This document shows, piece after piece, positions 623 through 17,285 of a stretch of 17,330 nt of DNA. Location: positions 1-17,330 of the IMG/VR virus record IMGVR_UViG_3300026382_000013. One strand, 5' to 3'. How positions within the stretch are numbered: position 1 is the stretch's first letter; each line of letters begins with the position of its first letter. Under the pieces are notes generated by a model. The model was not told the DNA's origin, searched no databases, and was given only the letters and a program-made list of their open reading frames with translations. The translations under genes were made by a program, and so were the position numbers. The DNA comes from a virus. Lineage: Duplodnaviria; Heunggongvirae; Uroviricota; Caudoviricetes.

Positions 623-645
623 TATATTTCTCCTTTGTACTTCCA

Positions 646-1860: not shown

Positions 1861-1863
1861 ATC

Positions 1864-2295
1864 TTATTCTCCATAACTCGGTAATTCAGCTAATACTTCG
1901 TCAACTGTAGGCATATCTCTATTCCCAGCTTTTACATCTGCTTCAATTTGCTCAGCTGTAGCCCATACATTTGCAGCCCATGAACCTAAGCTTTCTGCTT
2001 GTTCTCTATAAGGATTGTCATATCCTATATATTTTCCGATAGAGTTAATGTTATCATACCCTAGAGCTAATGCCTGTCTATTGAGTAATATTTGTATCTT
2101 AGAGTTTACGGATTTTTTATAGTCCTCTAACTCTTTTTGTGTACTTTCTGCATCAACCATTGCTTGAATATCGTCAGGTAGCGATTCCACTACAAAATAT
2201 CCTTCTTTATTGTAGCACCAAGGAGGAATAGTATCTTCCTTGCTTTCGTCTAACACCCATATTTTATTTGTTTTTGTTATTGTATATGCTATCAT
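1864..2295 (-). CDS. Putative tail fibre assembly/chaperone-type protein
   Basis: 143 aa, directly downstream of the fibre gene. ALALGYDNINS...SWAANVWATAEQIEADVKAGNRDMPTVDEVLAELP matches the common 'GYD.I.S...W...VW...PT.EE..AELP' fibre-associated family. Confidence 0.65.
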   Translation of the reverse strand: MIAYTITKTNKIWVLDESKEDTIPPWCYNKEGYFVVESLPDDIQAMVDAESTQKELEDYKKSVNSKIQILLNRQALALGYDNINSIGKYIGYDNPYREQAESLGSWAANVWATAEQIEADVKAGNRDMPTVDEVLAELPSYGE

Positions 2296-2306
2296 TGTAC
2301 GCCTCC

Positions 2307-4808
2307 TTAGCTTGTTATAGAGCCATTAGCTCCCCATTCATTTAGTGTTATACTTGCTCTTGCATCTCCCTTATACTCCGATATATCAACAATAGAACCA
2401 CTATTAGCATGATACTCATAATTCCCATTAGCAGTGCAATTGCTATACAGTGCAGCAATATTTGACCTACCTCCTGCTACAATACTGACCGAGCCTGCAC
2501 TGGTAACAGTAGCATAACCAGCATTAATAGTTGAAGCATATGCAGCATATATACCGTATGTGCCAGCACCACTAGCATCTGCTGATATAGCATTGATGGT
2601 TGAATCGTATAAGGCATAGATACCATATGTACCAGCATTACTAGCATCTGCTGTGCCGGCATTGATAGTTGAACTACTACGCGCATAGATACCAACACTA
2701 CCAGCACCACTAAATATACTTCCTTCTATGTGTGCTTCGGAGCGTTTATAAACTAATATACCATACTGACCAGCATTTTTAACACCACAGCCATTTAGTA
2801 CATTTACTTTACTACCAGCTACAGCATATATACCGCTTCTTTCAGTGCTTTCTTCACCACTAGCATCCATATTAAATAATTGACCTATTACAGGTAATGT
2901 AGCGTTTATAGCATTGAATGCACTATATCTGTCAACACCATCATACTCATTAGCAGTGTTTATTGTCAATGTATCTCTTTGTATTGTAGTTTCCTCATCT
3001 TCTCCAGTGATAGTAATATAGCCCAGATCTATACCTTTGACTATTACTTGTTCTTGCATAACGAATCCAGCTAATAGCCTTATCTCTACACTATAACCAC
3101 CTTGTTTATATAATGGGTAAGCTTTACTAGCTTCTTCTAATGCTTCATTTATGGTAGCATAGGCACCCCCTGAGCCAACTGTTAGTAATTTGTCTGCTTT
3201 TATGTTAAGTATAGTTTGTTTTTTGCTAGTAGCTTCATTAGCATTAACTGCATCAGCAACTTTAAAAGTTTGAGTAGCACTACCATTTAAACCTGCTTTT
3301 GTATCTAGTAGCTTATCATCTTCACTTTTAGTGTAATGGTCAGCTAAGACAAATGCACCATAAGTTACAACATCAACTATGTCACCAGCAGAAGCACCAA
3401 CAGCTAATACAATATCTGCACCACTACTAGTATCAACATCTACACCATTCTCTAGCTTTCTACCATTTAGGTACACATCAGCAAATCCTGCATCATACCC
3501 ACCAGTAATAGCGAATGTTGTTTGCTCAGCAGTTGCAGTGAACACTTGTCTTCCACTAGTACCATTAATAACTGTACCAGCTGCTCTCCAGCCATCTGTA
3601 TCATATAATCGTAACCCTTTTAAGCTAGCATCTGAGGACGTATTTAGGTACATATCCCCTACCACAGTAGCACTGCCATCTGGTCTTGTAGATGGGTCAG
3701 TTTCACTAGGTGGGTAGTATGTATCTGCATACCTACTTACGTCATCTATACTATTACTAACAGTAGTAACCTTAACTATGCTGCCAGCAACTACTGACAC
3801 ATCTGTACTATTAGCTGCTATAGTGTCTATAGCATCGTAGTGTGGGCTTACTAATGCTTCCTTACTAACTACAGTTTCTTCCATTACAGCTACGTTAGCC
3901 TCACTAGTAGCTGCATTGCTTTCAGATGTACTAGCATTATTAGCACTTGTAAGAGCATTAGCTTCTGAGCTGCTAGCGTTAGCCTCACTTGTAGCTGCCT
4001 CATTTTTGCTAGCTAAAGCGTTATTCTCACTTACAGCTGCCGAACTAGCACTACTTGCTGCATTACTCTCACTTACACTACTATTAGACTCTGAAGTACT
4101 AGCTGCACTAGCACTATTACTAGCATTAGTCTCACTATTTGTGGCATTTAATTCACTACTTGCAGCATTAGTCTCTGAGGCACTTGCTGCATTTTCACTA
4201 GCTAATGCACTAGCCGCGCTACTAGCAGCATTTTCTGCACTTACACTAGCATTTGCCTCACTTGTAGCTGCATCACTCGCATTGTCTACTGCATTCACTA
4301 CACTAGCCATATTTGCACTTACATCATTTACGCTTGCTATATCATTAGCTACAATACCGACATCTGTTATACTACTACTTACAGTAGTTATGTTATTAGT
4401 ACCAACTAAATCATTAGCTACAATTGTAACGTCTGCTATACCATTTAAGTCCATACTGTTAAGGTCATCAGCTACTCTAACAATATCAGCTAAATTCTGC
4501 ACATCAGCTACAGTATTTACACTAGCTATGTTACCACTTACAGTACCTACACTACTAATACTGTCACTTACAGTGCTTACATTAGTAATAGCATCAGCTA
4601 CTTTAGTTACGTTAACTTCATTAGCAACAACAGCATTTATATTATCTTTGTTGGCCCCAGCAGCTACAACATTATCTATGTTGTCACCTACAGCTGCTAC
4701 ACTTACAAGCTCGTCAGCAACCTTTTTAACACTATCATACTTACTTCCTATGTCTCTAGAAATTCCACTAGTGCTTACATTACTTAAAGATGATCCACGT
4801 CTACTCAT
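2307..4808 (-). CDS. Modular tail fibre/tailspike (N4 gp66 position) with coiled-coil stalk and C-terminal parallel beta-helix
   Basis: 833 aa. It contains, in order, an N-terminal IGSKYDSVKKVA anchor-like segment, VxxVAxxIxxV repeats, 18 SExNAxx heptads, an ATAEQTTF...DVYLNGRKL...GD.V.VV module, and a TVGSGGAYATINEAL start followed by 23-aa beta-helix repeats. It is syntenic with gp67/68/69-like genes. Confidence 0.85.
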   Translation of the reverse strand: MSRRGSSLSNVSTSGISRDIGSKYDSVKKVADELVSVAAVGDNIDNVVAAGANKDNINAVVANEVNVTKVADAITNVSTVSDSISSVGTVSGNIASVNTVADVQNLADIVRVADDLNSMDLNGIADVTIVANDLVGTNNITTVSSSITDVGIVANDIASVNDVSANMASVVNAVDNASDAATSEANASVSAENAASSAASALASENAASASETNAASSELNATNSETNASNSASAASTSESNSSVSESNAASSASSAAVSENNALASKNEAATSEANASSSEANALTSANNASTSESNAATSEANVAVMEETVVSKEALVSPHYDAIDTIAANSTDVSVVAGSIVKVTTVSNSIDDVSRYADTYYPPSETDPSTRPDGSATVVGDMYLNTSSDASLKGLRLYDTDGWRAAGTVINGTSGRQVFTATAEQTTFAITGGYDAGFADVYLNGRKLENGVDVDTSSGADIVLAVGASAGDIVDVVTYGAFVLADHYTKSEDDKLLDTKAGLNGSATQTFKVADAVNANEATSKKQTILNIKADKLLTVGSGGAYATINEALEEASKAYPLYKQGGYSVEIRLLAGFVMQEQVIVKGIDLGYITITGEDEETTIQRDTLTINTANEYDGVDRYSAFNAINATLPVIGQLFNMDASGEESTERSGIYAVAGSKVNVLNGCGVKNAGQYGILVYKRSEAHIEGSIFSGAGSVGIYARSSSTINAGTADASNAGTYGIYALYDSTINAISADASGAGTYGIYAAYASTINAGYATVTSAGSVSIVAGGRSNIAALYSNCTANGNYEYHANSGSIVDISEYKGDARASITLNEWGANGSITS
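2455..2790 (-). repeat. About five 23-codon (69-bp period) repeats encoding a parallel beta-helix
   Basis: Units include VKNAGQYGILVYKRSEAHIEG, FSGAGSVGIYARSSSTINAGT, ASNAGTYGIYALYDSTINAIS, ASGAGTYGIYAAYASTINAGY and VTSAGSVSIVAGGRSNIAALY. DNA similarity is visible between about 2547-2582 and about 2616-2651. Confidence 0.75.
3885..4262 (-). repeat. 18 in-register heptad repeats (S-E-x-N-A-x-x), coiled-coil stalk
   Basis: 378 nt = 126 aa from SEANASV to SEANVAV. Every seventh residue is Ser, with no register break. Confidence 0.85.
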
Positions 4809-5422
4809 TATTTAAATCCTCTATTACTTATTCTTTTAGGCATAAGGACATCATCACTAGTGAACATACCTGCTGCCTCTATTCTAGCACATGCTTGCTC
4901 AAACAATGCGTAGTGTGTTGACTGCTCAGTGTTAGCTATACCATTTACAGATATATGCCCGCTGTACCCAATATAGTTAAGTAGTGGTGCTATCATCTGT
5001 GGAGGTACTTTAACACTATCATTTAGGTTAGCTTCAGTTACCCACTCTGGTCCTGCTCTATATATGATACTAATATACGCCCCATCAGTAGCTAGAGGAA
5101 CTTGTACAGTGTTGTACCCTACAGTGTTTAAGCTCAATGGGTTATCTTCCTCATTGATAGGTAGCTCAACAACTTCAACATCAGACCCCGACTCTACCTC
5201 ACCATAAGCTGTTATAGCCCACATGAAGTCAGATGGCATCTCATACATCTCTACACCATCTTGTAGCTCTACCATCTCTTCAGATACCTTTAGAGCGAAT
5301 CTTTTGTATAGCTCTATAAGCCCTAGATTAATGTACTCTAGTACGGCATTTACATCATTAGATATAGCAATGTTTTTTAACTCTCTGTTTGCTGCTGTAT
5401 CTATAACTTGTTGTACTGTCAT
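4808..5422 (-). CDS. N4 gp67-like virion structural (head-tail adaptor-type) protein
   Basis: 204 aa. AVLEYINLGLIELYKRF...VELQDGVEMY...INEEDNPLSLNT...IIYRA...LLNYIGY...FEQACARIE and the terminal ISNRGFK parallel N4 gp67 as recalled. It lies immediately downstream of TerL, as in N4. Confidence 0.75.
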   Translation of the reverse strand: MTVQQVIDTAANRELKNIAISNDVNAVLEYINLGLIELYKRFALKVSEEMVELQDGVEMYEMPSDFMWAITAYGEVESGSDVEVVELPINEEDNPLSLNTVGYNTVQVPLATDGAYISIIYRAGPEWVTEANLNDSVKVPPQMIAPLLNYIGYSGHISVNGIANTEQSTHYALFEQACARIEAAGMFTSDDVLMPKRISNRGFK

Positions 5423-5490
5423 TGCGTACCACCTATTAGTTTATTTATCTGATGCATTATACCATTACATATCTTTACCATTACTTACAC

Positions 5491-7356
5491 TTAGAACACA
5501 GTACTCCCACCTCCGCTACCCCATTCATTAGTGTCCTCAGGATAATACCAATTCCCATCATGCCCTTGCTCTACAACATCTAGCTCTGTACTCAACATGT
5601 CTTCTGCACTTGGTTTCTGTAAATCTAGCAAAGGTATCATACTCACTAGGTCAACACCATCATCAGCTTTAGCTGTTAGGCCAGTATACGTGATTCCCCC
5701 AAGCTCTTCTAACAGCTCTTTCATGTCAGGTGTATCAGCTAACTCCTCAGGGAAGTATATATGATGCCCTTGGAATAATGGGTGTACCCTCATGAAGTGG
5801 TTATGCTTATTTCTACCACTTCTGCTAACACCTTCACTACCATATGGTTTACCTACTTGCCTAGCAAATGTAAAATACACATTTCTAGCTTGCATATCTT
5901 TTCTAAGACTCTCTATGTTAAGTTGTTGTTGCCCATTAATCTCAACACCTACCTCAACAAAGTCTACACCATACTTTACAGTGTACATCTGTACAAACCT
6001 AAATATATGCTCAAACTGTTCAGCTATACCATCTTTCTTCAAACTCAACTCTAGTAGGAATATATCCCCTACACTATTCATAGCCCATAGAGCAGTACCA
6101 CTGTAATCCCCTTTCTTACTATTACTAGCAGTATAGTCCGTAGTTGCAAATACTTTATACCCACTAAGGTGCTTTAGTATATTCTGTCTACTATACCACT
6201 GTATCTCACCCTTCTTAATTAACTTATCTTCCTCACTAGCAATCCTAAGCATAAGCTCTTGATTAAACTCTCTTAGTGTTCCACCATATTTAGCATCAAG
6301 ATACCTTTCCATAGCCCAATCATAATCATTCATCTGAGGCCAGCTACCTACAAACTCTTCCTTAGTTGTACCCTCATTAATCTTCTCACACATTGGTACA
6401 CACATTGGGGTCCATACACCATTCTCTAATGCACTATATACAGGATCTTTCTTTGTAAATGGTGTATTGATAATAATCAACTTACCATTTCTATTCATAG
6501 CACTCTCAGCATCACTATATATCATACTATTAAGCTTCTGCATAATAACAGCACTTCTAGCATCAGCTTCACTCTTGATAATATCATCAAAACTCAATAT
6601 ATCAATCCTTTTAGCTCTATAACGAATACCCCTTACACTACTACCACTAGCACCTTTTACTTTAAACATAAAAGCTCTATCTTCTTCTCTGCCATCACCT
6701 CTTCTAATAAACTCACATTCTTCATCAGTAAATCGCATCTTCTCAAAGTAACCCTTACAGAACTCACTGTCCATACACAAGTCCCTAATAGTGTTAGCTT
6801 GTACCTTAGCCCCTGCATGTTGTGCATCACCAAAGCTTACCCAGAACATTACCTTACCGAAGTTAGGTATCTTCCCAGTAATGGCTACGTAGATAGGCAT
6901 AAATGCAGTCAATATAGTACTTTTAGCACTACGTCTACTTGCAATAATAGCTATCTTCTTAGGGTTTATCTTTAAGTTCTTAGTTATCTCTTTAGGAAAT
7001 GGGAACATCTCTTCAGTTACATTACCAAACACTAAATCAACTAAAAAGTAATGCATCTTGCTATTCTTAACTTCAGGTTCTTTCCCTAATACCAACCTAA
7101 TAACATTAAAGAATTCTATAGCTTGTAAACTAGGTATATAATTAGGAAAGCTGAGATCAATAGTGTCCAAAGCCCTATCAACATCAAACTCATACTCTTT
7201 CCTCTTACTTGGCATTTTCACATTCTCAGGTAGTTCCTCTCGCTCTTCAGCTATAGCCTCTAAGAACTTATCCCAACCTTCATACTTACTTTCACTATCA
7301 TCTACTATATCTGGACTATTTTCATCCAGTATAATACTAGCTTCATTCTTAGGCAT
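5491..7356 (-). CDS. terL: Terminase large subunit, N4 gp68-like
   Basis: 621 aa. Walker A-like IAIIASRRSAKST, Walker B ILSFDDI, coupling motif IINTP, and RNase H-like acidic residues (ATTDYTAS, GVEING, ADDGVD). The N-terminal NYIPSLQAIEFFNVIRLV...HYFLVD resembles N4-type terminases. Confidence 0.92.
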   Translation of the reverse strand: MPKNEASIILDENSPDIVDDSESKYEGWDKFLEAIAEEREELPENVKMPSKRKEYEFDVDRALDTIDLSFPNYIPSLQAIEFFNVIRLVLGKEPEVKNSKMHYFLVDLVFGNVTEEMFPFPKEITKNLKINPKKIAIIASRRSAKSTILTAFMPIYVAITGKIPNFGKVMFWVSFGDAQHAGAKVQANTIRDLCMDSEFCKGYFEKMRFTDEECEFIRRGDGREEDRAFMFKVKGASGSSVRGIRYRAKRIDILSFDDIIKSEADARSAVIMQKLNSMIYSDAESAMNRNGKLIIINTPFTKKDPVYSALENGVWTPMCVPMCEKINEGTTKEEFVGSWPQMNDYDWAMERYLDAKYGGTLREFNQELMLRIASEEDKLIKKGEIQWYSRQNILKHLSGYKVFATTDYTASNSKKGDYSGTALWAMNSVGDIFLLELSLKKDGIAEQFEHIFRFVQMYTVKYGVDFVEVGVEINGQQQLNIESLRKDMQARNVYFTFARQVGKPYGSEGVSRSGRNKHNHFMRVHPLFQGHHIYFPEELADTPDMKELLEELGGITYTGLTAKADDGVDLVSMIPLLDLQKPSAEDMLSTELDVVEQGHDGNWYYPEDTNEWGSGGGSTVF

Positions 7357-8107
7357 CTAATGTTACTCCTATCTGTTGTACATCCTCTATACTATGACCT
7401 TGTATAAGTCTTTCCCTTTGTACAGCAGCATTAGCAGCTAACTGTTCAATAAGATTCATTTGTACCTCTTTAGCTTCTTCACTAATACCTATCTTAATAT
7501 CTAGTGTGTTATCCTCAGGCATCTTAACCATATCATACAACTTACTTAAAGCTAGGTGTTGTACATTAGCACTAACCTTTTCACCTCTAGCATCAAAACC
7601 ACATGCTAACTTATACTGTCCTTGTATCGCAAAGTGCCTCATGTGGCTATACTGTAGATGGTCTGCTACAAACATCTGTTTATCTACCTCACCTACTAAC
7701 CAAGTCTTATTATAAGCACCTGCATGGGTGTCTAAACTAGTAGTTGTGCTATTACCAGCAGCTTCTTTAGCCTTAATAGTCTCTTCAACTCTCTTAGCTC
7801 TATCAGGGAATACAATCTTCCAAGCTTTAGTGTTACTCATATACTGTTTCAACGTACAAAACTTAATCGCATTAACATAGTCATCAGACTTCACATTACT
7901 ACCCTTAAGTAACATTATATTACTCATAAACTGCTCTTCCATATACTCTTGAGATACACCAATATCTTCCTCAGCACGTAACATCAATTCCACCATCTCT
8001 TCAGATACCTTATGATGTACACCTCTAGGTAGAAATTCTCTTACCTTCTCAACTGTTATATTTTGAGTGTTATGTGTATGCTTACCAACAAGTTTTAAAT
8101 CTTCCAT
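7349..8107 (-). CDS. N4 gp69-like protein, putative terminase small subunit
   Basis: 252 aa, overlapping the terL start by 8 nt, with an AAGGA SD. ITVEKVREFLP...DDYVNAIKFC...AWKIVFPDR...AYNKTWLV...LDIKIG...NAAVQRERLIQG parallels gp69-family proteins as recalled. Confidence 0.75.
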   Translation of the reverse strand: MEDLKLVGKHTHNTQNITVEKVREFLPRGVHHKVSEEMVELMLRAEEDIGVSQEYMEEQFMSNIMLLKGSNVKSDDYVNAIKFCTLKQYMSNTKAWKIVFPDRAKRVEETIKAKEAAGNSTTTSLDTHAGAYNKTWLVGEVDKQMFVADHLQYSHMRHFAIQGQYKLACGFDARGEKVSANVQHLALSKLYDMVKMPEDNTLDIKIGISEEAKEVQMNLIEQLAANAAVQRERLIQGHSIEDVQQIGVTLDA

Positions 8108-8124
8108 TGTAATCCTTTTCTGAC

Positions 8125-8133
8125 ATTATAGCA
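8125..8133 (-). promoter_or_regulatory. Extended -10 sigma70-type promoter (TGcTATAAT) for the packaging/structural operon
   Basis: The minus strand reads gtgTGcTATAATgtcagaaAAGGAttacaATG. No good -35 is seen. Confidence 0.6.
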
Positions 8134-8278
8134 CACTTATTACTGTGTAGTGAAGGTTACGTTGGATGGTGCAAAGTACACACTATTATAAATTTTTTTG
8201 TGTAGGGGTAGTATGTAACCTACACGATACACAAAAGTCATAGTCCCCCCTAGTCATTAGCTAGTGTAAATAATAAGT

Positions 8279-8298
8279 ACCTTCTATTTTATATGGTA
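8279..8298 (+). promoter_or_regulatory. Conserved motif copy 1 (candidate phage-RNAP promoter)
   Basis: ACCTTCTATTTTATATGGTA; GG at 8295-8296, 67 nt before the ATG at 8362. Confidence 0.7.
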
Positions 8299-8361
8299 GT
8301 ACTTAGTACTATATACTTGTAAGTCCTGAACCTTTATGGCAGGCATTGTAAGGAGTTAGTT

Positions 8362-8628
8362 ATGGGTTTAAGAATAGTTAAAAAGGTAGACCTTTTAGTA
8401 GACACCACTGGTTATGTTAACCAGTATGGTGTGGCGAGCAATAACATAGGAGTGTACTCACACATTCTTGTGAGTCAAGACCTTGTAGTTCTAAAAAAAC
8501 GATATGTAGCATACTATGAGAAGCGGACTACAGGTAAGTGGCTGACAAGAAATAGTACTTACGACGCAGTGGCACAGCTACAAGAATTAAAAGTGGGAGA
8601 TGTAGTTCCTAAGGAGCTACTAGCCTAA
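8362..8628 (+). CDS. Hypothetical protein (88 aa)
   Basis: AAGGAG SD before the ATG; first gene after motif copy 1. Confidence 0.75.
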   Translation: MGLRIVKKVDLLVDTTGYVNQYGVASNNIGVYSHILVSQDLVVLKKRYVAYYEKRTTGKWLTRNSTYDAVAQLQELKVGDVVPKELLA

Positions 8629-8711
8629 ACATAAGACCTAATCAAGTCTATAAACTGATTGCACTTTAACTATACAAATAGTGCATCGGCTTAACAGAGC
8701 TTATCTGTATT

Positions 8712-8741
8712 CTAACTATGTATAGTAGTTAGTATTTTTTT
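8712..8741 (+). terminator. Putative intrinsic terminator
   Basis: CTAACTA-N7-TAGTTAG stem followed by TA and T7. The stem is AT-rich, so weak. Confidence 0.45.
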
Positions 8742-8764
8742 ACACGGGGAACAAAGCACGAAGT

Positions 8765-8784
8765 ACCTTTTACTTAATGTGGTA
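8765..8784 (+). promoter_or_regulatory. Conserved motif copy 2
   Basis: ACCTTTTACTTAATGTGGTA, preceded by AAGT as in copy 1; GG 35 nt before the ATG at 8816. Confidence 0.65.
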
Positions 8785-8815
8785 ACCTACATATCTTATT
8801 TACAAGGAGTAAGTC

Positions 8816-8941
8816 ATGTCAGTACAATTCATAAGTCCTAATGGACAACAAGTATGTATCAATGTACCAACATCACAAGTTGCAGACAGGCTAGCAGACA
8901 TTATGCTAGCTAACTGTACAGTAATTAAAGTATCAGCATAG
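8816..8941 (+). CDS. Small protein, 41 aa (MSVQFISPNGQQVCINVPTSQVADRLADIMLANCTVIKVSA)
   Basis: Not in the track. AAGGAG SD at 8804-8809; directly downstream of motif copy 2. Confidence 0.7.
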   Translation: MSVQFISPNGQQVCINVPTSQVADRLADIMLANCTVIKVSA

Positions 8942-8992
8942 TCATAAAGCTTGACCATTCAATACCACACCTAGTGTGAAGAAGGAAGTACC

Positions 8993-9301
8993 ATGGTAAG
9001 AACAATAGATAGTAGCATTAAAGCAACAGCAGGTGATGCAGTTCACCAAACTATAGCAATAGCTATGGTGAGAAGAGGTGTGAAAGCCTCAGAAGTTATA
9101 GAAACCCTTAAAGCTTACAATTATATAGTAAACATTAAGGGAGTACTATATAAAGTACAGGCTACTAGTGTGGCTTCAATAGTCACAGGTATAGAAATAG
9201 CTATCTCAGTGCCTAAAGGTAAAGTAGCAGACCTTCATCCAATAGACAATGGTGTAGAAGCACCACAGTCTGCTAACACTCCTCTAGTTATTGAGGAGTA
9301 A
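8993..9301 (+). CDS. Hypothetical protein (102 aa)
   Basis: GAAGGA SD upstream; converges on the ParB-like gene. Confidence 0.75.
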   Translation: MVRTIDSSIKATAGDAVHQTIAIAMVRRGVKASEVIETLKAYNYIVNIKGVLYKVQATSVASIVTGIEIAISVPKGKVADLHPIDNGVEAPQSANTPLVIEE

Positions 9302-9331
9302 CTAGCTTAGCCTTAAACTTAGCCTAATCGT

Positions 9332-10054
9332 TTATTGAGGAGTAGCAGTCTTAATAGCTCCATATAGCATAGAGCTTAACTTCTCAAGCATAGCCAACCC
9401 AAACTCCGACTGTAGCTCTTGTACTTTAGTCTTCAGTGTATTCAACTCATCATCACTAAATAAATTAGTTGCAACACATTGTGACTCACTAAGTATATCA
9501 GCTTCTCTAGATTTAAAATGATTGTAGACACTTAGTAAACTATCTGATAGTAATGGCTTACTAGTAGTACCTATGTTCACTTTACCACCGTTAAACATAT
9601 GGTCCATAATAGCTTTAGAAACTATAGCATCTAGTTTCTTTGCTCTACTTAACATAAGTTTATTAGTTCCATACCTAGCACATACCACTTCTTGAGATTC
9701 TTTAGCACCACTAGCTCTAAGTCTATCATACTCATGTAGAGCATAGATAGCCTTTTGTGTAGGTGTTTGATGTCTTCTAGTCTCATGACTGGCAACAAGC
9801 TGTCTTACTTCTTCTATAGGTGTAGAAGGATTTAAGTGTATAGCTTTTATACTAACACTCTGTAATTCTCTCATAGCTAACACTCTATGTCTACCATCAA
9901 CTACTTTAGCTCTATACAGTTTAATAGGTTCTAGCTGACCATTCTCTGCAATATCAGTTTTTAAAGCCTCAAATTGCTCATCAGTCATCTTAGGAGTACT
10001 AAGAGCTAACTCATGTATTTCAATATCTTTAAGTTTAATTTCAGTTACAACCAT
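9332..10054 (-). CDS. ParB/Sulfiredoxin N-terminal domain protein with probable HTH
   Basis: 240 aa. LKTDIAENGQLEPI...VVDGRHRVLA contains the GxxRxxA CTP-binding motif, then RRHQTPTQKA and a helix-turn-helix-like QEVVCARYGTNKLMLSRAKKL. AGAGG SD. It is the only credible minus-strand gene in the right arm. Confidence 0.85.
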   Translation of the reverse strand: MVVTEIKLKDIEIHELALSTPKMTDEQFEALKTDIAENGQLEPIKLYRAKVVDGRHRVLAMRELQSVSIKAIHLNPSTPIEEVRQLVASHETRRHQTPTQKAIYALHEYDRLRASGAKESQEVVCARYGTNKLMLSRAKKLDAIVSKAIMDHMFNGGKVNIGTTSKPLLSDSLLSVYNHFKSREADILSESQCVATNLFSDDELNTLKTKVQELQSEFGLAMLEKLSSMLYGAIKTATPQ

Positions 10055-10083
10055 TCTTACACCTCTTTAGTTAATGTATTAGT

Positions 10084-10112
10084 ATTATACATCGTTTACT
10101 AACATATGTCAA
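10084..10112 (-). promoter_or_regulatory. Perfect consensus sigma70 promoter of the ParB-like gene
   Basis: The minus strand reads TTGACA-tatgttagtaaacgatg (17 nt)-TATAAT, about 30 nt upstream of the ATG. Confidence 0.85.
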
Positions 10113-10123
10113 GTGGAGGCATT

Positions 10124-10161
10124 TAGTAAACTGTTTACTAAATTTAGTAAACAGTTTACTA
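10124..10161. repeat. 38-bp perfect palindrome built from two 17-bp dyads
   Basis: TAGTAAACTGTTTACTA-AATT-TAGTAAACAGTTTACTA. Checked base by base as self-complementary about 10142/10143. Confidence 0.95.
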
Positions 10162-10189
10162 TTTACTATTTACTATTTACTATTTACTA
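10155..10189 (+). repeat. Tandem heptamer (TTTACTA)x5
   Basis: Five exact copies; the first is the end of the palindrome. Confidence 0.95.
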
Positions 10190-10247
10190 TTTTGTTCTAA
10201 ACTACTATTAGGCGATACTTGTACAAAACTTCTATATACTTACTTAG

Positions 10248-10304
10248 ATAAGGTACACTTTTAGTACCCTTTCACACATCAATAAGGTACACTTTTGGTA
10301 CCCT
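10248..10304. repeat. Two 23-bp direct repeats with internal dyad GGTAC-N7-GTACC (operator-like)
   Basis: ATAAGGTACACTTTTAGTACCCT (10248-10270) and ATAAGGTACACTTTTGGTACCCT (10282-10304): 22/23 identical, 34-bp period. Confidence 0.9.
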
Positions 10305-10393
10305 ATCTTTTTAGTCAAGTTCCCTAATATTGGGCTCTATCGACTGTATTCCCTATTCTAGAATAGAGAGTACACTAATATCCCTTACTAATA

Positions 10394-10413
10394 ACCTCTT
10401 ATTCTATATGGTA
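10394..10413 (+). promoter_or_regulatory. Conserved motif copy 3
   Basis: ACCTCTTATTCTATATGGTA; GG 35 nt before the ATG at 10445; divergent from the ParB-gene promoter. Confidence 0.65.
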
Positions 10414-10444
10414 ATCAATCCAAATCTATTTAAAAGGAACAATC

Positions 10445-10516
10445 ATGTCATGTTTAATTATTGACGGTGTATTATTAACACCAGAAGAAACAGCACAATA
10501 CTTAGCTAACCGTTAA
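10445..10516 (+). CDS. Micropeptide, 23 aa (MSCLIIDGVLLTPEETAQYLANR)
   Basis: Not in the track. AAAGGA SD about 6 nt upstream; first ORF after motif copy 3. Confidence 0.5.
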   Translation: MSCLIIDGVLLTPEETAQYLANR

Positions 10517-10601
10517 GTATATGTAATCAGTCGTTAACATACTATAGTAGTAACAGTCTACTATTTAATACCTCAACTAATAATGAGAAGAAAGGGTCAG
10601 C

Positions 10602-10949
10602 ATGGCATCAATAATCAAAGACATAAAACAAGCAACAGCAAGCACATTGAGTGCGGGTGTTGCAGTAGTAACGAGCACAGCGGATATGATCACAACTGTA
10701 GCAGGAAGCACTACTGCAATTGTAGACCCAACTATTGGGATGGTCACAGATGTAGCTAGTGTTGGGAGATCTTACACTAGCACACTACTACTTGAGACTC
10801 AGGCAGACAGTAAGATATCTAATGCAATAGCACAGAGTAAACTAGAAGCATCTAAGACTTACTTAGAGTCTAAAGCAGGTAAAAGTAAACTAGCAGAGGC
10901 TAGTGAGAAGTATGTCCAAATGCAATTGGACGAGATGTTAGATTTCTAG
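10602..10949 (+). CDS. Hypothetical Thr/Ala/Ser-rich helical protein (115 aa)
   Basis: AAAGGG SD; open frame with phage-like codon usage. Confidence 0.75.
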   Translation: MASIIKDIKQATASTLSAGVAVVTSTADMITTVAGSTTAIVDPTIGMVTDVASVGRSYTSTLLLETQADSKISNAIAQSKLEASKTYLESKAGKSKLAEASEKYVQMQLDEMLDF

Positions 10950-11145
10950 CATCTCAAGTTGTTAGTAAGAGTGGGTAACTGCTCTGCTAACACTAAACTC
11001 TATTACACGATTAACAAAGAAAGCTAGAAGGCCTGCAACAAAGAATGTAGCATACTAGCTAATTCAGCTTGTACTATATTAGCTTCTTTACTAATAGTAT
11101 TAAAGTACTTATTTACTAAAGCTTGTTCATCTAGACTTAGTTCCA

Positions 11146-11166
11146 CTCTAGGCTCTAGGCTCTAGG
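11146..11166 (+). repeat. Tandem heptamer (CTCTAGG)x3
   Basis: Three exact copies inside the 750-bp non-coding gap. Confidence 0.85.
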
Positions 11167-11253
11167 TATTTTGACATCTAATACAGTATTCTCTGCTAGC
11201 CATCTTAGGATCGTTCCTAGACTATCAGTATAAAATAGATACTTTAGTACTAC

Positions 11254-11366
11254 TAAATTCTGGTCAATAATTAATAGTTACCGACCAGAGAAAAGATGGT
11301 CGGTCGACCAGAATTTAAAACTGATACCCTAATTTAGGGGTTTGCTAAAAAAGATGGTCGACCGAC
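11254..11366. repeat. Cluster of nested inverted and direct repeats built on GGTCG/CGACC
   Basis: TAAATTCTGGTC (11254-65) and GACCAGAATTTA (11306-17) are inverted. ACCGACCA-N9-TGGTCGGT spans 11280-11304. AAAAGATGGTCG is a direct repeat at 11291 and 11349. GGTCGACC occurs at 11302 and 11356. Confidence 0.85.
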
Positions 11367-11638
11367 TTACTTACTACAATAACTCTTTATATCCTATATA
11401 CTAATAGACAAACTGTGGATTTAATTAAACCTATCTCATGTTTTTCAAGACGATTTAGACAGGACTCCAGTCCTATTAAAATTAATTACAAGCGACAGCA
11501 CTGAAAAATAAAACACTTATTTAATTAATATAGAGTTCTCGATAGGTTATCTACCTTAATTAAATCTTAACTTAAATTTACATAACCCACTTATAACCCC
11601 AAACACTCATCCTACACTGTATTTATGGAAGCCTAACA

Positions 11639-11658
11639 ACCTTCTATTTAATATGGTA
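11639..11658 (+). promoter_or_regulatory. Conserved motif copy 4 (consensus-like)
   Basis: gcctaacaACCTTCTATTTAATATGGTA; GG 47 nt before the ATG at 11702. Confidence 0.7.
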
Positions 11659-11701
11659 TTACAACAACACTCAACACTAACTTATTTATAAAGGGAATAT
11701 A

Positions 11702-12154
11702 ATGCCTACAATAACAAAAATAGATGGCCTAGTACAAGACTCAAACACAATAGAAATTACTCTATCAGACGGTAAAGTAATTAAACAGTACCATAGGCAA
11801 GATTGCTGTGAATATGTAGCAGTACATCAAGTAGATGGTAATATCTCTAAACATATAGGAGCAAAGTACATAGAGTTACTTTGTAAATCTAGAAGAGCAC
11901 AAAACGATGAAGTGTCTGCAAGTGGTACATGGACATTCTACACATTAAAGACATCTAAAGGTTATTTAGACTGGAGATGGTTAGGTGAGTCTAATGGGTA
12001 CTATAGTGAAAATGTAACAACAGTAACTTTATACCCATTAGAACTAGCAAGAGATAACTCTATAGAATTAGTAGACATTACAGCATACAATTTTGATAAA
12101 GAAGACTACACATCTAAATCTCTATTCAAATGGAAACTATTAGGAAATATTTAG
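11702..12154 (+). CDS. Conserved phage hypothetical protein (HxQDCC...TWTFY...RWxGESNGYYSE family)
   Basis: 150 aa with YHRQDCCEYV, WTFYTLKTSKGYLDWRWLGESNGYYSENV, a motif set recalled from a widespread phage DUF (possibly DUF7448; unverified). Confidence 0.75.
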   Translation: MPTITKIDGLVQDSNTIEITLSDGKVIKQYHRQDCCEYVAVHQVDGNISKHIGAKYIELLCKSRRAQNDEVSASGTWTFYTLKTSKGYLDWRWLGESNGYYSENVTTVTLYPLELARDNSIELVDITAYNFDKEDYTSKSLFKWKLLGNI

Positions 12155-12230
12155 CAGGGACCATAAAGGTGATTTACTTACAGCTACTACTGAATCATTA
12201 TTTAAAAATAAACTACTTTAAAGCCTAATA

Positions 12231-12249
12231 ACCTTTTATTTAAATGGCA
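12231..12249 (+). promoter_or_regulatory. Conserved motif copy 5 (1-nt shorter spacer)
   Basis: gcctaataACCTTTTATTTAAATGGCA; GG 65 nt before the ATG at 12311. Confidence 0.6.
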
Positions 12250-12310
12250 GTGTGTACAACTGAAATTCGTTGTATATTTATACCTTACTAAAACATATGG
12301 AGATTTAAAA

Positions 12311-12955
12311 ATGGAAAATACAATCACAGCACAAGAAGCATTTAATGAAAAGCTTGAGGAAATTCGTAAAGAAAGAGCAATGGATCTTACAGCGAATAGA
12401 TTAAGATCTGAAGTAGCCATAAACGATGCACTACTTAGAGAATCAGTAGCAACTGTTACTGTAGTTCTTAAAGAGCTATACGAGTTCTTAGACTTAGAAC
12501 CAGAGAAGCTAGAGTCTTTCTTAAAGATGGCGAGAAGAAGTGAGTACGGTAGAGTACCAGAAATGTTAGCTAAGATAGCATCATTGTATACATGGCCAGG
12601 ATGTGATGTGCAAGACATTGCAGATACTCAAGAAGATATCTTAGACATCATCAATAAGTATACAGCAGTTCCAGTGACAGCAGACCTTCTTATGGATATT
12701 AAAGAGTCTAAAGGTTCTCATACATTCTTAAGTAATACAGATTACGAAGTTATAGATGCTATCGAACCTGCTTATGAAGAGTTTAAGTACTACATCTCTA
12801 CATTAGCTGATTACCTCAATCTTCCATATGTAGACATTAAACTATCTGAAGAGAAGTGGGAAAAGAACGAACACAAAGCTCTCAAAAGAGTAGCTAAAGA
12901 GCAAGAAGAAGCACAAAAAGCTTTAGAAGCTCATAATGCATTAGTTAGTGCATAG
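12311..12955 (+). CDS. Acidic helical hypothetical protein (214 aa) directly upstream of the RNAP
   Basis: GGAG SD; Glu-rich with a coiled-coil-like C-terminus; no family recognised. Confidence 0.8.
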   Translation: MENTITAQEAFNEKLEEIRKERAMDLTANRLRSEVAINDALLRESVATVTVVLKELYEFLDLEPEKLESFLKMARRSEYGRVPEMLAKIASLYTWPGCDVQDIADTQEDILDIINKYTAVPVTADLLMDIKESKGSHTFLSNTDYEVIDAIEPAYEEFKYYISTLADYLNLPYVDIKLSEEKWEKNEHKALKRVAKEQEEAQKALEAHNALVSA

Positions 12956-12958
12956 TAA

Positions 12959-12977
12959 GTAGGGATTTAGTCCCTAC
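12959..12977. promoter_or_regulatory. Hairpin GTAGGGA-TTTAG-TCCCTAC upstream of the RNAP gene
   Basis: Perfect 7-bp stem in a 48-nt intergenic gap; no U-tract follows, so function is unclear. Confidence 0.5.
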
Positions 12978-13003
12978 AACCAATTTATTTATAAGGACAA
13001 AGT

Positions 13004-14782
13004 ATGTTATATAGTTTACTAAACAAAGAGTTACCAGACAATACCAAAGTCTATATATCTTTTGAGTCAGTGGCAACAAAGCTACTAATAGACTCTATGG
13101 AGTATAGTTTCATTAATGGTTCTAACCAAGTATCAGTACCATTTTGGAGTGAAAAGATAGGTGCAAAGTTATTCACAGCTGTATCTTTTGCATTAGGTGA
13201 AGAAAAATGGATTAATGGTGTAGTTAAACCAAACTTCGCATACATAGAACTTAATGAGACTAAACTTGCTAAGTATATTGATACTACAAAGTATCGTAAA
13301 GATATGAGAATTAAGCTCAATACTATGAAATGTGTTAATAGTATTATGGATAGTAACCTCACTAAAACACCTAATAGCATCGAAGATACAGGATTAGTAA
13401 GAGATGGTTTTGCTAAGTGTGCTAGTATGAAGTTTCAATTAGATACAGTAGCTATGCTTAAGCACTATGAGTTAATTAAGTCTAACTTAGTTAAAGGTAT
13501 GACTAATGTTGCTAAGAAATACCCAGATGTCCTTATGGATGAAGCTAACTATAAAGCAATTTCAGAAGAAGTATTAGATTACTATCTATGTAACCCTAAA
13601 AAGTACTATAACCTTGAATCAAACATAAATGATATGAGAGGTAGAAGCATCTATAGTGGTATCCGTAAAGTAGGCAATATTATTGCTAACAAAGACATGA
13701 GAGCACTTATTATAGCTGATAAATCAGTATTTATACTAGATACTAATAAGAAAGCTTTAAATGATATCTACCTGTTCATTGCAGAATTAGTAGAAAGTAA
13801 AGCTAAGTCATGGAATGGTAAGATACTTAGTGGTATGGTATCTTATAAAAAGAAAAGATTACCTAATATGACAGCTAAAACACTACATGAGATTATATGG
13901 TTAGAAAGAATCTACGAAGCTTTAGACCAACTATTTATAGATGGTAGTATTATGTGGAACATACCTTTAGAAATGGATGCTACAGCTTCTATAGCTCAGA
14001 TTGTTGGAGTACTTACTAATGATCGTAGATTACTAGCTAAAACTAATGTAATAGAACCAGAAACTCTTGAAGACTTTTGGTATGTAAAAGGTGTAAACAA
14101 CCGTGATGGTATAAAAGCAATAGGTACACCAGTAGGTTATGGTTCTAGTGCTTCATTCACTAAACTTCTTAAAGCTAAAAAGGAAACTCTTACAAAAGAA
14201 GAGATGAAAGCTATACGAAAAGAATTTAAAGATGGTGCATTTGCAGTTATTAAAGCATTCAAAGATTTAACAGTTAAACATGCTAATATTACTACACCAA
14301 CATTTACTACAGATACTTACTTTGAGCAGTATACGACTACTGTTAATAAGCATAAAGTAGTAGGTGCTAACCTTACAGCATATAGTACATATTGTAGCAA
14401 GACTAAGACTATTAAAATTATTATGAACCATACTACTATTACAGTACCTGATTATGATAGATTTAGAACTTACCATGCTACAGGTCTTATACATAATTTA
14501 GATTCGTTTATCATGGATAGTACTATGAAAACTATCCAAGATAGAGGAGAATGGTGTATAGCTATTCATGATGCAGGGTTAGTACTTCCAGGTACTGCTA
14601 TGAGAGAAGCTTACATAGCTCAATTAGAGAACTTAAGAACTAATAGACATAAAGTACTTAATAGTTACTTACAGTCTATAGGAGCAACAGATAAAGCTTC
14701 TAAAATAGCTTATACTAAATTATTAGCTACTGTAGAACCACTTGATAATTCTATTTCATTCTCTATTTCAGCACTTAAATAA
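13004..14782 (+). CDS. Compact single-chain T7/N4-RNAPII-family DNA-directed RNA polymerase
   Basis: 592 aa. DX2GR motif DMRGRSIY (D210; T7 DWRGRVY). Motif A LEMDATASIAQ (D325; T7 D537). Motif B RDGIKAIGTPVGYG with exact R-x3-K-x7-YG spacing (R367/K371/Y379). GLIHNLD (H497; T7 NFVHSQD). Motif C AIHDAG (D523; T7 LIHDSF). AAGGA SD. Confidence 0.9.
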   Translation: MLYSLLNKELPDNTKVYISFESVATKLLIDSMEYSFINGSNQVSVPFWSEKIGAKLFTAVSFALGEEKWINGVVKPNFAYIELNETKLAKYIDTTKYRKDMRIKLNTMKCVNSIMDSNLTKTPNSIEDTGLVRDGFAKCASMKFQLDTVAMLKHYELIKSNLVKGMTNVAKKYPDVLMDEANYKAISEEVLDYYLCNPKKYYNLESNINDMRGRSIYSGIRKVGNIIANKDMRALIIADKSVFILDTNKKALNDIYLFIAELVESKAKSWNGKILSGMVSYKKKRLPNMTAKTLHEIIWLERIYEALDQLFIDGSIMWNIPLEMDATASIAQIVGVLTNDRRLLAKTNVIEPETLEDFWYVKGVNNRDGIKAIGTPVGYGSSASFTKLLKAKKETLTKEEMKAIRKEFKDGAFAVIKAFKDLTVKHANITTPTFTTDTYFEQYTTTVNKHKVVGANLTAYSTYCSKTKTIKIIMNHTTITVPDYDRFRTYHATGLIHNLDSFIMDSTMKTIQDRGEWCIAIHDAGLVLPGTAMREAYIAQLENLRTNRHKVLNSYLQSIGATDKASKIAYTKLLATVEPLDNSISFSISALK

Positions 14783-14824
14783 AGATGAGGCCTTTTGGTC
14801 TTGTCTTTACTTATTTTTTTTTTT
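14780..14824 (+). terminator. Intrinsic terminator after the RNAP gene
   Basis: TAAAGATGAGGCC-TTTT-GGTCTTGTCTTTA forms a 13-bp stem including three G-U pairs, followed by CTTA and T11. Confidence 0.7.
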
Positions 14825-14873
14825 GCTTTTGTAACAAAGATAAGAAGATATTTTATTTATAAGGAGGTGTGCT

Positions 14874-15158
14874 ATGTTTGCTATCATAATTGGAATCGTA
14901 ACTGCTTTTAACTTTTTAATACTTTTAAAAAAGGTAAGAATGGGAAGACATTTAGATGCTTTCTTAGATATATCAGCCATGGTTGCTTTATCATGGATGT
15001 TTGGTGGTACATTAGGAGGAATGGTAGTAGCTATGGTTGCTTCTGCTGTTATCTCTCTATCTTTACTTAAAGAACCACTTGAATTTAATGATGATGAAGA
15101 CGAAGATGAAGAATCTTCTATACCAGTGTATACACCTAAAGGAGCTACTAATGTTTAA
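14874..15158 (+). CDS. Small membrane protein with acidic C-terminal tail (94 aa)
   Basis: AAGGAGG SD; two to three hydrophobic segments, then NDDEDEDEE. Confidence 0.85.
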   Translation: MFAIIIGIVTAFNFLILLKKVRMGRHLDAFLDISAMVALSWMFGGTLGGMVVAMVASAVISLSLLKEPLEFNDDEDEDEESSIPVYTPKGATNV

Positions 15159-15309
15159 TTTTTTTAAAGATATAGGTACAACATTAGCTGTATCCTTAGG
15201 TCTTATTATATTAGGAGCTATAGCTATAGTGACTCAAGCTATTATTTTTTTACTTATACCAATAGGTATATACTATGCTATAAAATTTTTACGTGAAGTT
15301 ACAAGTTAG
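15151..15309 (+). CDS. Small membrane protein (52 aa, MFNFFKDIGTTLAVSLGLIILGAIAIVTQAIIFLLIPIGIYYAIKFLREVTS)
   Basis: The track starts at 15037, but the ATG at 15151 has an AAGGAG SD and overlaps the previous stop by 8 nt. Confidence 0.75.
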   Translation: MFNFFKDIGTTLAVSLGLIILGAIAIVTQAIIFLLIPIGIYYAIKFLREVTS

Positions 15310-16057
15310 TGAGGATATAGCTCCATATTATTTTGGGGTTATACTACTATTCGGTTGGATTAGCCCTATATTAATTGGAGTTGTATTTATTACATTTCTA
15401 TTCCATATTTTTTATAGGCTATCTAAAGAAGATTTTACAGAGTACTACGTACCTTCTAAAGTAACAAAGGTATCCATAAACATAGAAGAAAAACAAGCTT
15501 ACATGAAATCTAAAAAGTGGTATATTACACGAATTGCTGTGCTTAAACGAGATAATTACGAATGTTATATATGTTCTAAGCAAGTACCCTTAGAGGTACA
15601 CCATCTTACATATAAGCATATTTACAATGAGCCATTAGAAGATTTAGTATCGTTATGTAGACGTTGTCATCAAGCACAACATAATCACTATGGCTATAAA
15701 TATACAACAAATTATATAAAATTAGTAGGGGACAAATTTATGACTGAACGATTTAAACAATTGCACCATCTAATAGGTAAAACTATCACTATGGAAGGTA
15801 TCATACAAAAATACGGTATGAATGTTGGAACAAAGGAAAGAACTGTATGTTTTAAAGATGTACTTATAGATGGTATACATATAGACCACATATGGGTAAA
15901 TTATTCACTTTATTACCCACAAGGTACAAAGCAAACTGTTAAGGCTAAAGTATTACTTAGAAATAGACCCAATGACAATGTATTTAATACTGAACCTAAA
16001 AAAGATATACAAATAATTATTAAGGATAAACATGATAATCACAAACATCAAAACTAA
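15293..16057 (+). CDS. HNH endonuclease with N-terminal transmembrane segment and a separate C-terminal domain
   Basis: YMKSKKW...VLKRDNYECYICSKQVPLEVHHLTY...EPLEDLVSLCRRCHQAQH is a zinc-binding CxxC-HH-CxxCH HNH fold. Residues about 12-42 are hydrophobic. The GTG start is uncertain. Confidence 0.8.
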   Translation: MKLQVSEDIAPYYFGVILLFGWISPILIGVVFITFLFHIFYRLSKEDFTEYYVPSKVTKVSINIEEKQAYMKSKKWYITRIAVLKRDNYECYICSKQVPLEVHHLTYKHIYNEPLEDLVSLCRRCHQAQHNHYGYKYTTNYIKLVGDKFMTERFKQLHHLIGKTITMEGIIQKYGMNVGTKERTVCFKDVLIDGIHIDHIWVNYSLYYPQGTKQTVKAKVLLRNRPNDNVFNTEPKKDIQIIIKDKHDNHKHQN

Positions 16058-16169
16058 ACTATCTAAAATTATAGATATGATTAACTACTCTATTAAAGAT
16101 AGAGTAGCTATTTATAAATTTTATAGCAAACATAAAGATTATACAATTCAACCGTATTTAGGAGAATAA
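16032..16169 (+). CDS. Small basic protein, 45 aa (MIITNIKTKLSKIIDMINYSIKDRVAIYKFYSKHKDYTIQPYLGE)
   Basis: Not in the track. TAAGGA SD at 16021-16026; fills the gap exactly, with its stop 1 nt before the next ATG. Confidence 0.6.
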   Translation: MIITNIKTKLSKIIDMINYSIKDRVAIYKFYSKHKDYTIQPYLGE

Positions 16170-16170
16170 T

Positions 16171-16953: not shown

Positions 16954-16969
16954 ATTTTGGAAAATACCT

Positions 16970-17233: not shown

Positions 17234-17285
17234 TAGTTGATTTACATAATTAACGACATTTACTATGCATACAAAGGGTTAAATT

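Follow-up and report, generated by a model that had tools for sequence, protein, structure and literature searches.

The window analysed here is the stretch of 17,330 nucleotides formed by bases 1-17330 of the 81,330-bp linear viral contig IMGVR_UViG_3300026382_000013 of IMG/VR, for which CheckV gives a completeness of 78%. It very probably represents the normal junction between the late (packaging) arm and the early arm of an uncultured virulent podovirus related to N4, from an AltAD45-like lineage with genomes of approximately 100 kb. N4 is the textbook phage that uses three RNA polymerases (RNAPs) in turn. In the phage of the window, two of these polymerases have their chain states reversed compared to N4: the counterpart of RNAPII, which in N4 is built from gp15 and gp16, is a single polypeptide, whereas several make up the virion RNAP. 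The AltAD45 phages, the Alteromonas phages vB_AmaP_AD45-P1 to P4, are the closest isolates and the only members of the lineage in culture; they were described in 2013 by Garcia-Heredia et al., who did not find RNAPII and single-stranded DNA-binding protein (SSB) and read this as 'a different growth style' (PMC3821669). Homologues of both are recognisable by sequence in the lineage, which overturns the absence stated in that paper. The gene set as such is already known from the AltAD45 phages; what is worth keeping is the pairing of a previously unrecognised single-chain RNAPII with a split virion RNAP. Lifestyle and transcription strategy are ordinary, with a canonical N4 architecture and no sign of lysogeny.

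Arm layout of the window

The contig is read on the minus strand from 1 to 8107, on the plus strand from 8362 to approximately 50 kb, and on the minus strand again in the remainder. In N4, gp69 is directed to the left, gp70-72 and gp1-gp14 are directed to the right, and gp15/gp16 follow. Once the two genome ends of N4 are joined, this gives a leftward late arm, small open reading frames (ORFs) and a rightward RNAPII, and the window is alike. An earlier reading of the window, made from its letters without database searches (the sequence-only reading), had described an N4-like packaging arm joined to a non-canonical early region. The packaging arm was confirmed, as BLASTP of N4 proteins against the contig ORFs recovered the gp69-, gp68-, gp67- and gp66-like genes in N4 order on one strand. 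No match was obtained for N4 gp1-gp14 among the contig ORFs at E<=1e-3, in agreement with the lack of recognisable N4 early genes noted before. Nevertheless, the term non-canonical was overstated, since the arm layout matches exactly that of N4 with its ends joined.

The same arrangement was found in AD45-P1 (NC_021532), where the leftward block consists of gp024 (gp69-like), gp023 (gp68-like), gp022 (gp67-like) and tail fibre genes, and where a ParB-N gene, gp028, on the strand of the large terminase subunit (TerL) is followed by rightward small ORFs and pieces of an RNAP. Features in common with N4 and the Schitoviridae are the virion RNAP, an RNAPII-type polymerase, the gp45-family SSB, the gp69-gp66 block, gp59, gp56, gp57, gp43, gp37 and gp24/25, as well as the divergent early and late arms and the position of RNAPII, which closes a block of small early ORFs. 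In contrast, N4-like genomes are approximately 70 kb, compared to approximately 100 kb in this lineage. A genome of about 60-80 kb with direct terminal repeats of several hundred bp is typical of N4-like viruses, whereas the linear contig alone measures 81 kb and its complete relatives 97-114 kb.

A single-chain counterpart of N4 RNAPII

The RNAP gene that closes the early block was found to carry the DxxGR motif and motifs A, B and C in one ORF of 592 amino acids (aa), and the predicted fold is that of a complete T7-type RNAP, so that the unsplit RNAP of the sequence-only reading stands. Across 30 homologues, D210/R212/R214 (DxxGR), D325 (motif A), K371 and G380 (motif B) and H522-D523 (motif C) were invariant, and G213 (DxxGR) and Y379 (motif B) were nearly so. 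The AlphaFold (AF2) model had a pLDDT of 94 and, with Foldseek, matched T7 RNAP and mitochondrial RNAPs (POLRMT) at E ~1e-12. With VIA-align, 437 residues of the model, within residues 105-592 (palm, fingers and thumb), were aligned to T7 RNAP with a Z of 26.7 and a root-mean-square deviation of 3.9 A, and N4 gp16 was paired with model residues 249-592 with a Z of 18.4. The right-hand fold and motifs DxxGR, A, B and C are thus shared with T7 RNAP and POLRMT, the single-subunit family of PF00940. Compared to T7 RNAP, however, the 592-aa enzyme is approximately 290 aa shorter with a reduced N-terminal domain, and its sequence is nearer to N4 gp16.

The relationship to N4 was apparent at the level of the family profile. 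Against the PDB, the only significant match of the profile was N4 RNAP2 (6dt7_B, E 2.8e-5), and hhalign paired it with N4 gp16 at a probability of 91%. The single sequence found nothing among PDB sequences with phmmer, only the profile reaching gp16, and no family was assigned to it by Pfam and NCBIfam, where PF00940 was not reached at E 0.01. The hhalign match to N4 gp15 was not significant (E 0.22), yet the DxxGR motifs (residues 210-214) were paired. Therefore, residues 1-248 are taken as homologous to gp15 from their position and because the chain as a whole matches the fold of T7 RNAP and POLRMT. Since gp16 was aligned to residues 249-592, the boundary between gp15 and gp16 of N4, a heterodimer of 673 aa, falls near residue 249 of what is here a continuous chain in one open frame. 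With its 592 aa, this chain is smaller than the heterodimer.

In the phage database, the 592-aa RNAP matched only AD45 gp044 (residues 35-237), gp046 (residues 253-496) and gp048 (residues 497-592). The RNAPII homologue of AD45 is thus in at least three ORFs, all annotated as hypothetical and separated by a small ORF and a GIY-YIG endonuclease gene. These matches correct the annotation of the AltAD45 phages, in which an RNAPII homologue had previously gone unrecognised. A profile search recovered 455 cluster representatives of the family; in the subset examined, 115 of 193 proteins were full-length single chains of 557-668 aa and the remainder were pieces. In the complete relatives described below, RNAPII was encoded by one ORF in G001 (631 aa), G004 (645 aa) and G003 (686 aa; PF00940, E 5.6e-21), possibly by one ORF in G002 (906 aa, weak match), and by two ORFs in G005 (231 and 415 aa). 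In most cases, the RNAPII of this lineage consists of one polypeptide of about 590-690 aa. The ends of the partial homologues, all of which begin with M, clustered near profile positions 250, 337, 385 and 503, and this recurrence in the sequences suggests repeated fission, or mobile elements inserted at preferred sites. Some break points in relatives adjoin homing endonuclease genes.

According to a 2015 survey, every phage then known to carry a virion RNAP had a split RNAPII, either the heterodimer or, in two exceptions, a form with gp16 split further, and the origin of the heterodimer was called unclear (PMC4496689). Judged by its genes, the lineage described here has both a virion RNAP and an RNAPII homologue in one piece, a new combination that breaks this association. 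No fused RNAPII was found for Schitoviridae in literature searches, and the Schitoviridae genomes of the International Committee on Taxonomy of Viruses (ICTV) were not systematically tested for a single-chain form. We propose, tentatively and with the balance of doubt against it, that the lineage may preserve the pre-split state: it would inject a virion RNAP and use as second polymerase one minimal chain of 590-690 aa, and N4 gp15/gp16 would be one of several recurrent fissions. If true, this would answer where the heterodimeric RNAPII came from. The compact single-chain RNAP is offered for biochemistry, and the fission history of these enzymes is made testable. As a separate observation, the phrog_2166 profile (505 positions) spans the boundary of gp15 and gp16, a hint that split positions vary in Schitoviridae too.

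A split virion RNAP and other N4-type genes in the contig

A virion RNAP of approximately 3500 aa had been proposed as something to be looked for in the rest of the genome. It was found, but divided among three closely spaced cistrons (2393, 360 and 1442 aa, 4195 aa in total; contig 50869-63463), in contrast to the one 3500-aa chain of N4. The two large fragments matched separate regions of phrog_2206, N4 gp50 was also matched to the contig virion RNAP by BLASTP, and no family match was found for the 360-aa middle cistron. The first cistron junction consists of a TAG stop, 2 nt and ATG, with AAGGA ahead, and the second is a TAATG stop/start overlap with GAGGA ahead. With these Shine-Dalgarno sequences and the TAATG overlap, both junctions look like real gene boundaries.

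For AD45, PCR and gels confirmed that the virion RNAP is divided into pieces of 2481 and 1404 aa (PMC3821669), and the ORFs of AD45-P1 are 2495 and 1409 aa long. The pieces of approximately 2400-2500 aa and 1400 aa are therefore common to both, and the contig has the 360-aa cistron in addition. The AD45 split has been suggested to be a gene-calling error (PMC10654107). However, the chain state varies within the clade, which argues against this suggestion: G004 has the virion RNAP unbroken in a single frame of 4262 aa, and elsewhere it is split, with frames of 2350 and 973 aa in G003 and a stop inside the core in G001.

An SSB of 238 aa (contig 38936-39652) matched phrog_743, the family that holds N4 gp45, at 2e-17, and its gene directly follows a Sak4-like gene, as in the gp44-gp45 order of N4. 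The contig also carries N4-type portal (gp59), capsid (gp56) and gp57-like genes, a primase (N4 gp43), a Dda-like helicase (N4 gp37), a gp24-like ATPase and gp25-like genes. The N4-type primase, Sak4, SSB and helicase, a ClpP-like protease and ribonucleotide reductase genes are common to AD45 and the lineage of the contig. The sequence-only reading had inferred a simplified transcription programme. This does not hold: by homology, all known components of the three-stage scheme of N4, namely the virion RNAP, the RNAPII homologue and the gp45-family SSB, are detectable except the small cofactors gp1/gp2.

Relationship to AltAD45 and N4-like phages

No match to the whole window was found by megablast in 50,697 phage records. 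At the protein level, tblastn with TerL returned 480 phage records at approximately 30-34% identity, and every named record among the matches listed was an N4-like phage or AD45. The portal protein was 58-60% identical to those of AD45-P1 to P4 compared to approximately 40% for other N4-like phages, and the capsid and gp57-like proteins were about 54-70% and 44% identical to AD45 proteins, respectively. The gp67-like protein was 40% identical to AD45-P1 gp022, and the N-terminus of the gp66-like tailspike was 37% identical to gp021. TerL was only 30% identical to that of AD45.

Closer relatives were found in IMG/VR, where 18 contigs encoded a TerL 50-65% identical to that of the window. Five of these, rated 95-100% complete, are 97-114 kb long, a size that explains the completeness estimate of the contig; like the AD45 phages, they are approximately 100 kb. 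A TerL tree was constructed with IQ-TREE (LG+C20) from 22 N4-type sequences (the window, nine IMG/VR relatives, AD45-P1 and eleven Schitoviridae) and two distant outgroups. All N4-type TerLs formed one clade (100/100), in which the window and the nine IMG/VR relatives formed a clade of their own (91/95) that was sister to AD45-P1 plus the eleven ICTV Schitoviridae genera (93/86). In the approximately unbiased (AU) test, a single group of the window clade and AD45 was not rejected (p 0.117), and this grouping matches the portal and capsid identities. These findings place the window TerL within the N4-type clade on a separate branch with its IMG/VR relatives, as expected from the divergent N4-related lineage proposed before, and from the sequences compared the lineage is N4-related and branches either outside the Schitoviridae sampled or at their base.

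By its own terms, the sequence-only reading would be refuted if described Schitoviridae genera already showed the same gene set. Described phages with largely this set do exist, the AltAD45 phages, but NCBI does not place them in Schitoviridae, AD45-P1 being listed as unclassified Caudoviricetes. The label 'Efbeekayvirus vB_AmaP_AD45-P1' (PMC10654107) was not adopted, as it conflicts with NCBI taxonomy, where Efbeekayvirus holds other species.

Proposed transcription programme

By analogy with N4, the injected virion RNAP would transcribe the early arm, probably from the repeated 20-nt motif ACCTYYTAYTNNATRTGGTA as its promoter. The 592-aa RNAP would then transcribe the replication genes further to the right and, finally, transcription of the leftward late arm would fall to the host sigma70 polymerase, which would act with the phage SSB at weak extended -10 promoters.

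One candidate of this kind is the sigma70-like site already pointed out in the sequence-only reading, which is present at 8154..8125 (minus strand), 18 nt ahead of the gp69-like ATG. Such sites are not over-represented in the region, as 18 were found between 7900 and 13100 compared to 20.3 expected from shuffled sequence. However, the window and 5 of the 12 relatives examined have an extended -10 element (TGnTATAAT or TGnTATACT) located 20-40 nt ahead of the gp69-like gene. The N4 parallel suggests that the late arm is probably dependent on host RNAP at extended -10 promoters and on the gp45-family SSB.

The 20-nt motif is present in four exact copies and a degenerate fifth, all on the plus strand, ahead of early ORFs and upstream of the RNAPII gene. 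No further copy with <=2 mismatches was found in the 81 kb on either strand, including the 35 kb of downstream replication genes. When sought with <=2 mismatches in the 18 IMG/VR relatives and AD45-P1, the motif was not conserved; the sole match was one chance-like hit with two mismatches downstream of TerL (in L020 and L021). By comparison with N4, the copies are candidate early promoters, likely for the virion RNAP.

Several points weigh against the window being an ordinary N4-type junction with this programme. Each polymerase was matched to its gene class by analogy with N4 only. Homologues of the cofactors gp1 and gp2 were not found by BLASTP against the contig ORFs. The virion RNAP of N4 uses hairpin promoters, but the copies of the 20-nt motif, the sole repeated motif of the early arm and the one to which the folding was applied, shared no stable hairpin when the DNA of either strand was folded. 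Either the promoters are therefore recognised in another way than in N4, or the motif is used by a different polymerase. The window clade of the TerL tree is outside AD45 plus Schitoviridae, with a root that rests on very long outgroup branches. Finally, the contig is linear and estimated to be 78% complete, and from this record alone a lysogeny gene may lie in the remaining part.

An improbable alternative is a rewired programme, in which the 592-aa RNAP would use the motif, host RNAP would start infection at the promoter at 10.1 kb, and the main role of the split virion RNAP would be in ejection. The motif, free of hairpins, resembles a double-stranded T7-type promoter, and a perfect host promoter does lie within the early arm. 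Moreover, the AD45 authors noted cysteines in the large virion RNAP fragment and doubted its injection (PMC3821669), and cysteines are also present at the virion RNAP cistron junctions here. On the other hand, the confinement of all copies of the motif to the region upstream of the RNAPII gene, with none in the replication genes, fits a pre-made, injected virion RNAP better than the 592-aa enzyme, and the virion RNAP fragments retain both the polymerase core and the C-terminal encapsidation regions of phrog_2206.

The ParB-like gene and phage lifestyle

The only leftward gene inside the early arm encodes a ParB-like protein, and the sequence-only reading had combined it with the idea of a possibly temperate phage. 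The gene itself is real, given its match to PHROG ParB families at 3e-8 and the equivalent position of its homologues in AD45-P1 (gp028) as well as in IMG/VR and metagenome-assembled genome (MAG) relatives. The ParB-like protein is 52% identical over 50 aa to gp028, which is annotated as 'ParB N-terminal domain-containing protein'. Its assignment to ParB is weak, however: TIGR00180 was matched at E 0.006 with 16.4 bits, far below the cut-off of 58.45, Pfam ParB_N (PF02195) was not matched at E<=1, and phmmer against PDB sequences found nothing.

A temperate or plasmid-prophage relative of N4, in which the ParB-like protein and palindromic repeats would form a partition centromere or a lysis/lysogeny switch, is very improbable. 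The arrangement is suggestive, as the gene has its own consensus sigma70 promoter, with tandem repeats and a perfect palindrome of 38 nt next to it; proviruses of N4-like phages and N4-like genomes with an integrase are known from the literature (PMC10654107), and the contig is incomplete. Nonetheless, no PF00589 integrase, PF00239 resolvase, PF13614 (AAA_31) ParA or PF16684 protelomerase was found in the contig at E<=1, and integrase, resolvase and AAA_31 ParA were also absent from the five relatives that are 95-100% complete, in which protelomerase was not searched. The same gene is at the same position in AD45-P1 to P4, phages that were isolated as lytic (PMC3821669). In addition, when 185,579 species genomes were scanned for integrated relatives, no more than four contigs were recovered, all from MAG or single-cell assemblies, one of which, at 100,442 bp, has the size of a whole phage; no host flanks were present in the fetched stretches of these four contigs. 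Lysogeny, as proposed earlier, is therefore not supported. With its own consensus host promoter and the palindrome beside it, the ParB-like gene most likely encodes a DNA-binding protein that controls its own expression in a lytic phage, and it is unlikely to be a lysogeny or partition module.

The contig of 100,442 bp (L048, JAEHGX010000003.1) was binned to a Candidatus Falkowbacteria MAG, and a 22-kb contig (L045, JAKISX010000032.1) with a GC content of 0.33 and a TerL 65-67% identical was binned to a Sulfurimonas sp. MAG. The MAG placements of the clade contigs are probably binning artefacts, though the low GC content would suit a Campylobacterota host. The bin names (Sulfurimonas, Cocleimonas and Candidate Phyla Radiation) were rejected as reliable evidence of the host.

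Continuity of the junction

The genome of the AD45-P1 isolate has the same junction of late and early arms, as do eight or more independent contigs that come from other samples, which excludes a chimeric assembly, and the order gp69-like gene, ParB-like gene, early ORFs and RNAP was repeated in IMG/VR and MAG contigs. A fusion of an N4-type packaging module to an unrelated T7-like early region with its own single-chain RNAP, whether an assembly chimera or a recent mosaic, is hardly credible. In its favour, the RNAP is a single chain like that of T7 and has its best structural score against T7 RNAP, N4 early genes are not recognisable, and the identity of TerL to AD45 is not higher than to other N4-like phages. 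It is opposed by the recurrence of the junction, by a GC content that is continuous across it, by a plus arm that goes on through N4-type gp24/25, primase, Sak4, SSB and helicase genes up to the virion RNAP, and by N4 gp16 as the only significant PDB match of the RNAP profile.

Features of the window and minor observations

The features discussed above and those of the adjoining regions are listed in Table 1.

Table 1. Features of the window and of the virion RNAP region (window and contig numbering coincide)
Feature	Position	Strand	Remarks
Tail spike or fibre, gp66-like, 833 aa	2307..4808	-	BLASTP to N4 gp66, E 4e-6, N-terminal ~150 aa only
gp67-like virion protein (adaptor), 204 aa	4808..5422	-	BLASTP to N4 gp67, E 1e-7
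TerL, gp68-like, 621 aa	5491..7356	-	BLASTP to N4 gp68, E 5e-83, 34% identity
gp69-like protein, presumed small terminase subunit, 252 aa	7349..8107	-	BLASTP to N4 gp69, E 2e-8
Candidate host sigma70 late promoter, extended -10 (TTCACT-18-TGcTATAAT)	8125..8154	-	Predicted; followed by AAGGA and ATG
20-nt motif	8279..12249	+	Four exact copies at 8279, 8765, 10394 and 11639; degenerate fifth at 12231
Small early ORFs, 88, 41 and 102 aa	8362..9301	+	No informative family match
ParB-N/helix-turn-helix-like gene, 240 aa	9332..10054	-	PHROG ParB families
Consensus sigma70 promoter of ParB-like gene (TTGACA-17-TATAAT)	10112..10084	-	Predicted
Perfect palindrome, 19+19 nt	10124-10161		Adjoins the consensus promoter of the ParB-like gene
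Early ORFs, 115 and 150 aa	10602..12154	+	150-aa ORF, DUF7448 (PF24240, 3e-19)
ORF directly upstream of RNAP, 214 aa	12311..12955	+	Homologue in L045 at same position, 28%, E 2.5e-11
Single-chain T7-type RNAP, counterpart of N4 RNAPII (gp15 and gp16), 592 aa	13004..14782	+	Motifs, fold and profile
94-aa ORF and HNH endonuclease, 254 aa	14874..16057	+	Follow the RNAP gene
Virion RNAP fragment, 1442 aa	contig 50869-55197	-	phrog_2206 positions 2238-3405 (C-terminal encapsidation region), E 5e-107
Virion RNAP fragment, 2393 aa	contig 56282-63463	-	phrog_2206 positions 1024-2015 (polymerase core), E 2e-91

In the late arm, the 252-aa gp69-like protein matched phrog_2109 at 4e-27 and the 204-aa gp67-like protein matched phrog_2125 at 2e-33, families that also contain N4 gp69 and gp67, respectively. 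The gp67-like protein further matched Pfam SU10_adaptor at 1.3e-11. Pfam and NCBIfam searches returned no family for the gp69-like protein, and its homologue carries a small terminase subunit (TerS) annotation in phages PT15-A5 and Zuri. The 833-aa protein consists of a gp66-like N-terminal region of approximately 150 aa (virion anchor) and a C-terminal right-handed beta-helix (Pfam Beta_helix, 1.4e-7; PHROG tail families). Its gene (2307-4808) falls just outside the stretch, beginning at 4808, to which the sequence-only reading had assigned the gene order.

In the early arm, the 115-aa ORF was conserved in the relatives L016, L018, L024 and L044. The 214-aa ORF had no family match in Pfam and NCBIfam; speculatively, it is a candidate stand-in for the RNAPII cofactor, in a gp2/Drc-like role. 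The order of RNAP, 94-aa ORF and HNH endonuclease was kept in G001, with its homologue of the 592-aa RNAP, and in G003, with its divergent 686-aa RNAP; in L045 the RNAP gene is followed by the HNH gene, and the 94-aa ORF was not detected.

The contig as a whole has a GC content of 34% and no tRNA genes. One of its ends breaks inside a tail-fibre gene with a gp53-like C-terminal domain (PF21882; window 3-266), and the other (80775-81125) adjoins a gene for a tail-fibre assembly chaperone-like protein. As both ends are near tail-fibre genes, the missing part of approximately 20% may be mostly a variable tail-fibre region. A family A DNA polymerase is encoded by two ORFs of 477 and 274 aa, approximately 640 bp apart (contig 25310-28210).

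Interrupted genes were also seen in relatives. The capsid of AD45-P1 is annotated as two ORFs, gp010 and gp009 (NC_021532 12980-14124), which match residues 3-309 and 324-389 of the 395-aa capsid protein of the contig, and this reflects either a frameshift in the record or a programmed frameshift. TerL was interrupted or enlarged in several relatives (L025, L027-L029, L047 and L048), with one open frame of 1002 aa in L025 (3769-6777) and a gap of 0.5-1.2 kb after residue ~250 in L028, L029, L047 and L048. These interruptions resemble the insertion of an intein, an intron or an endonuclease gene into the ATPase domain.

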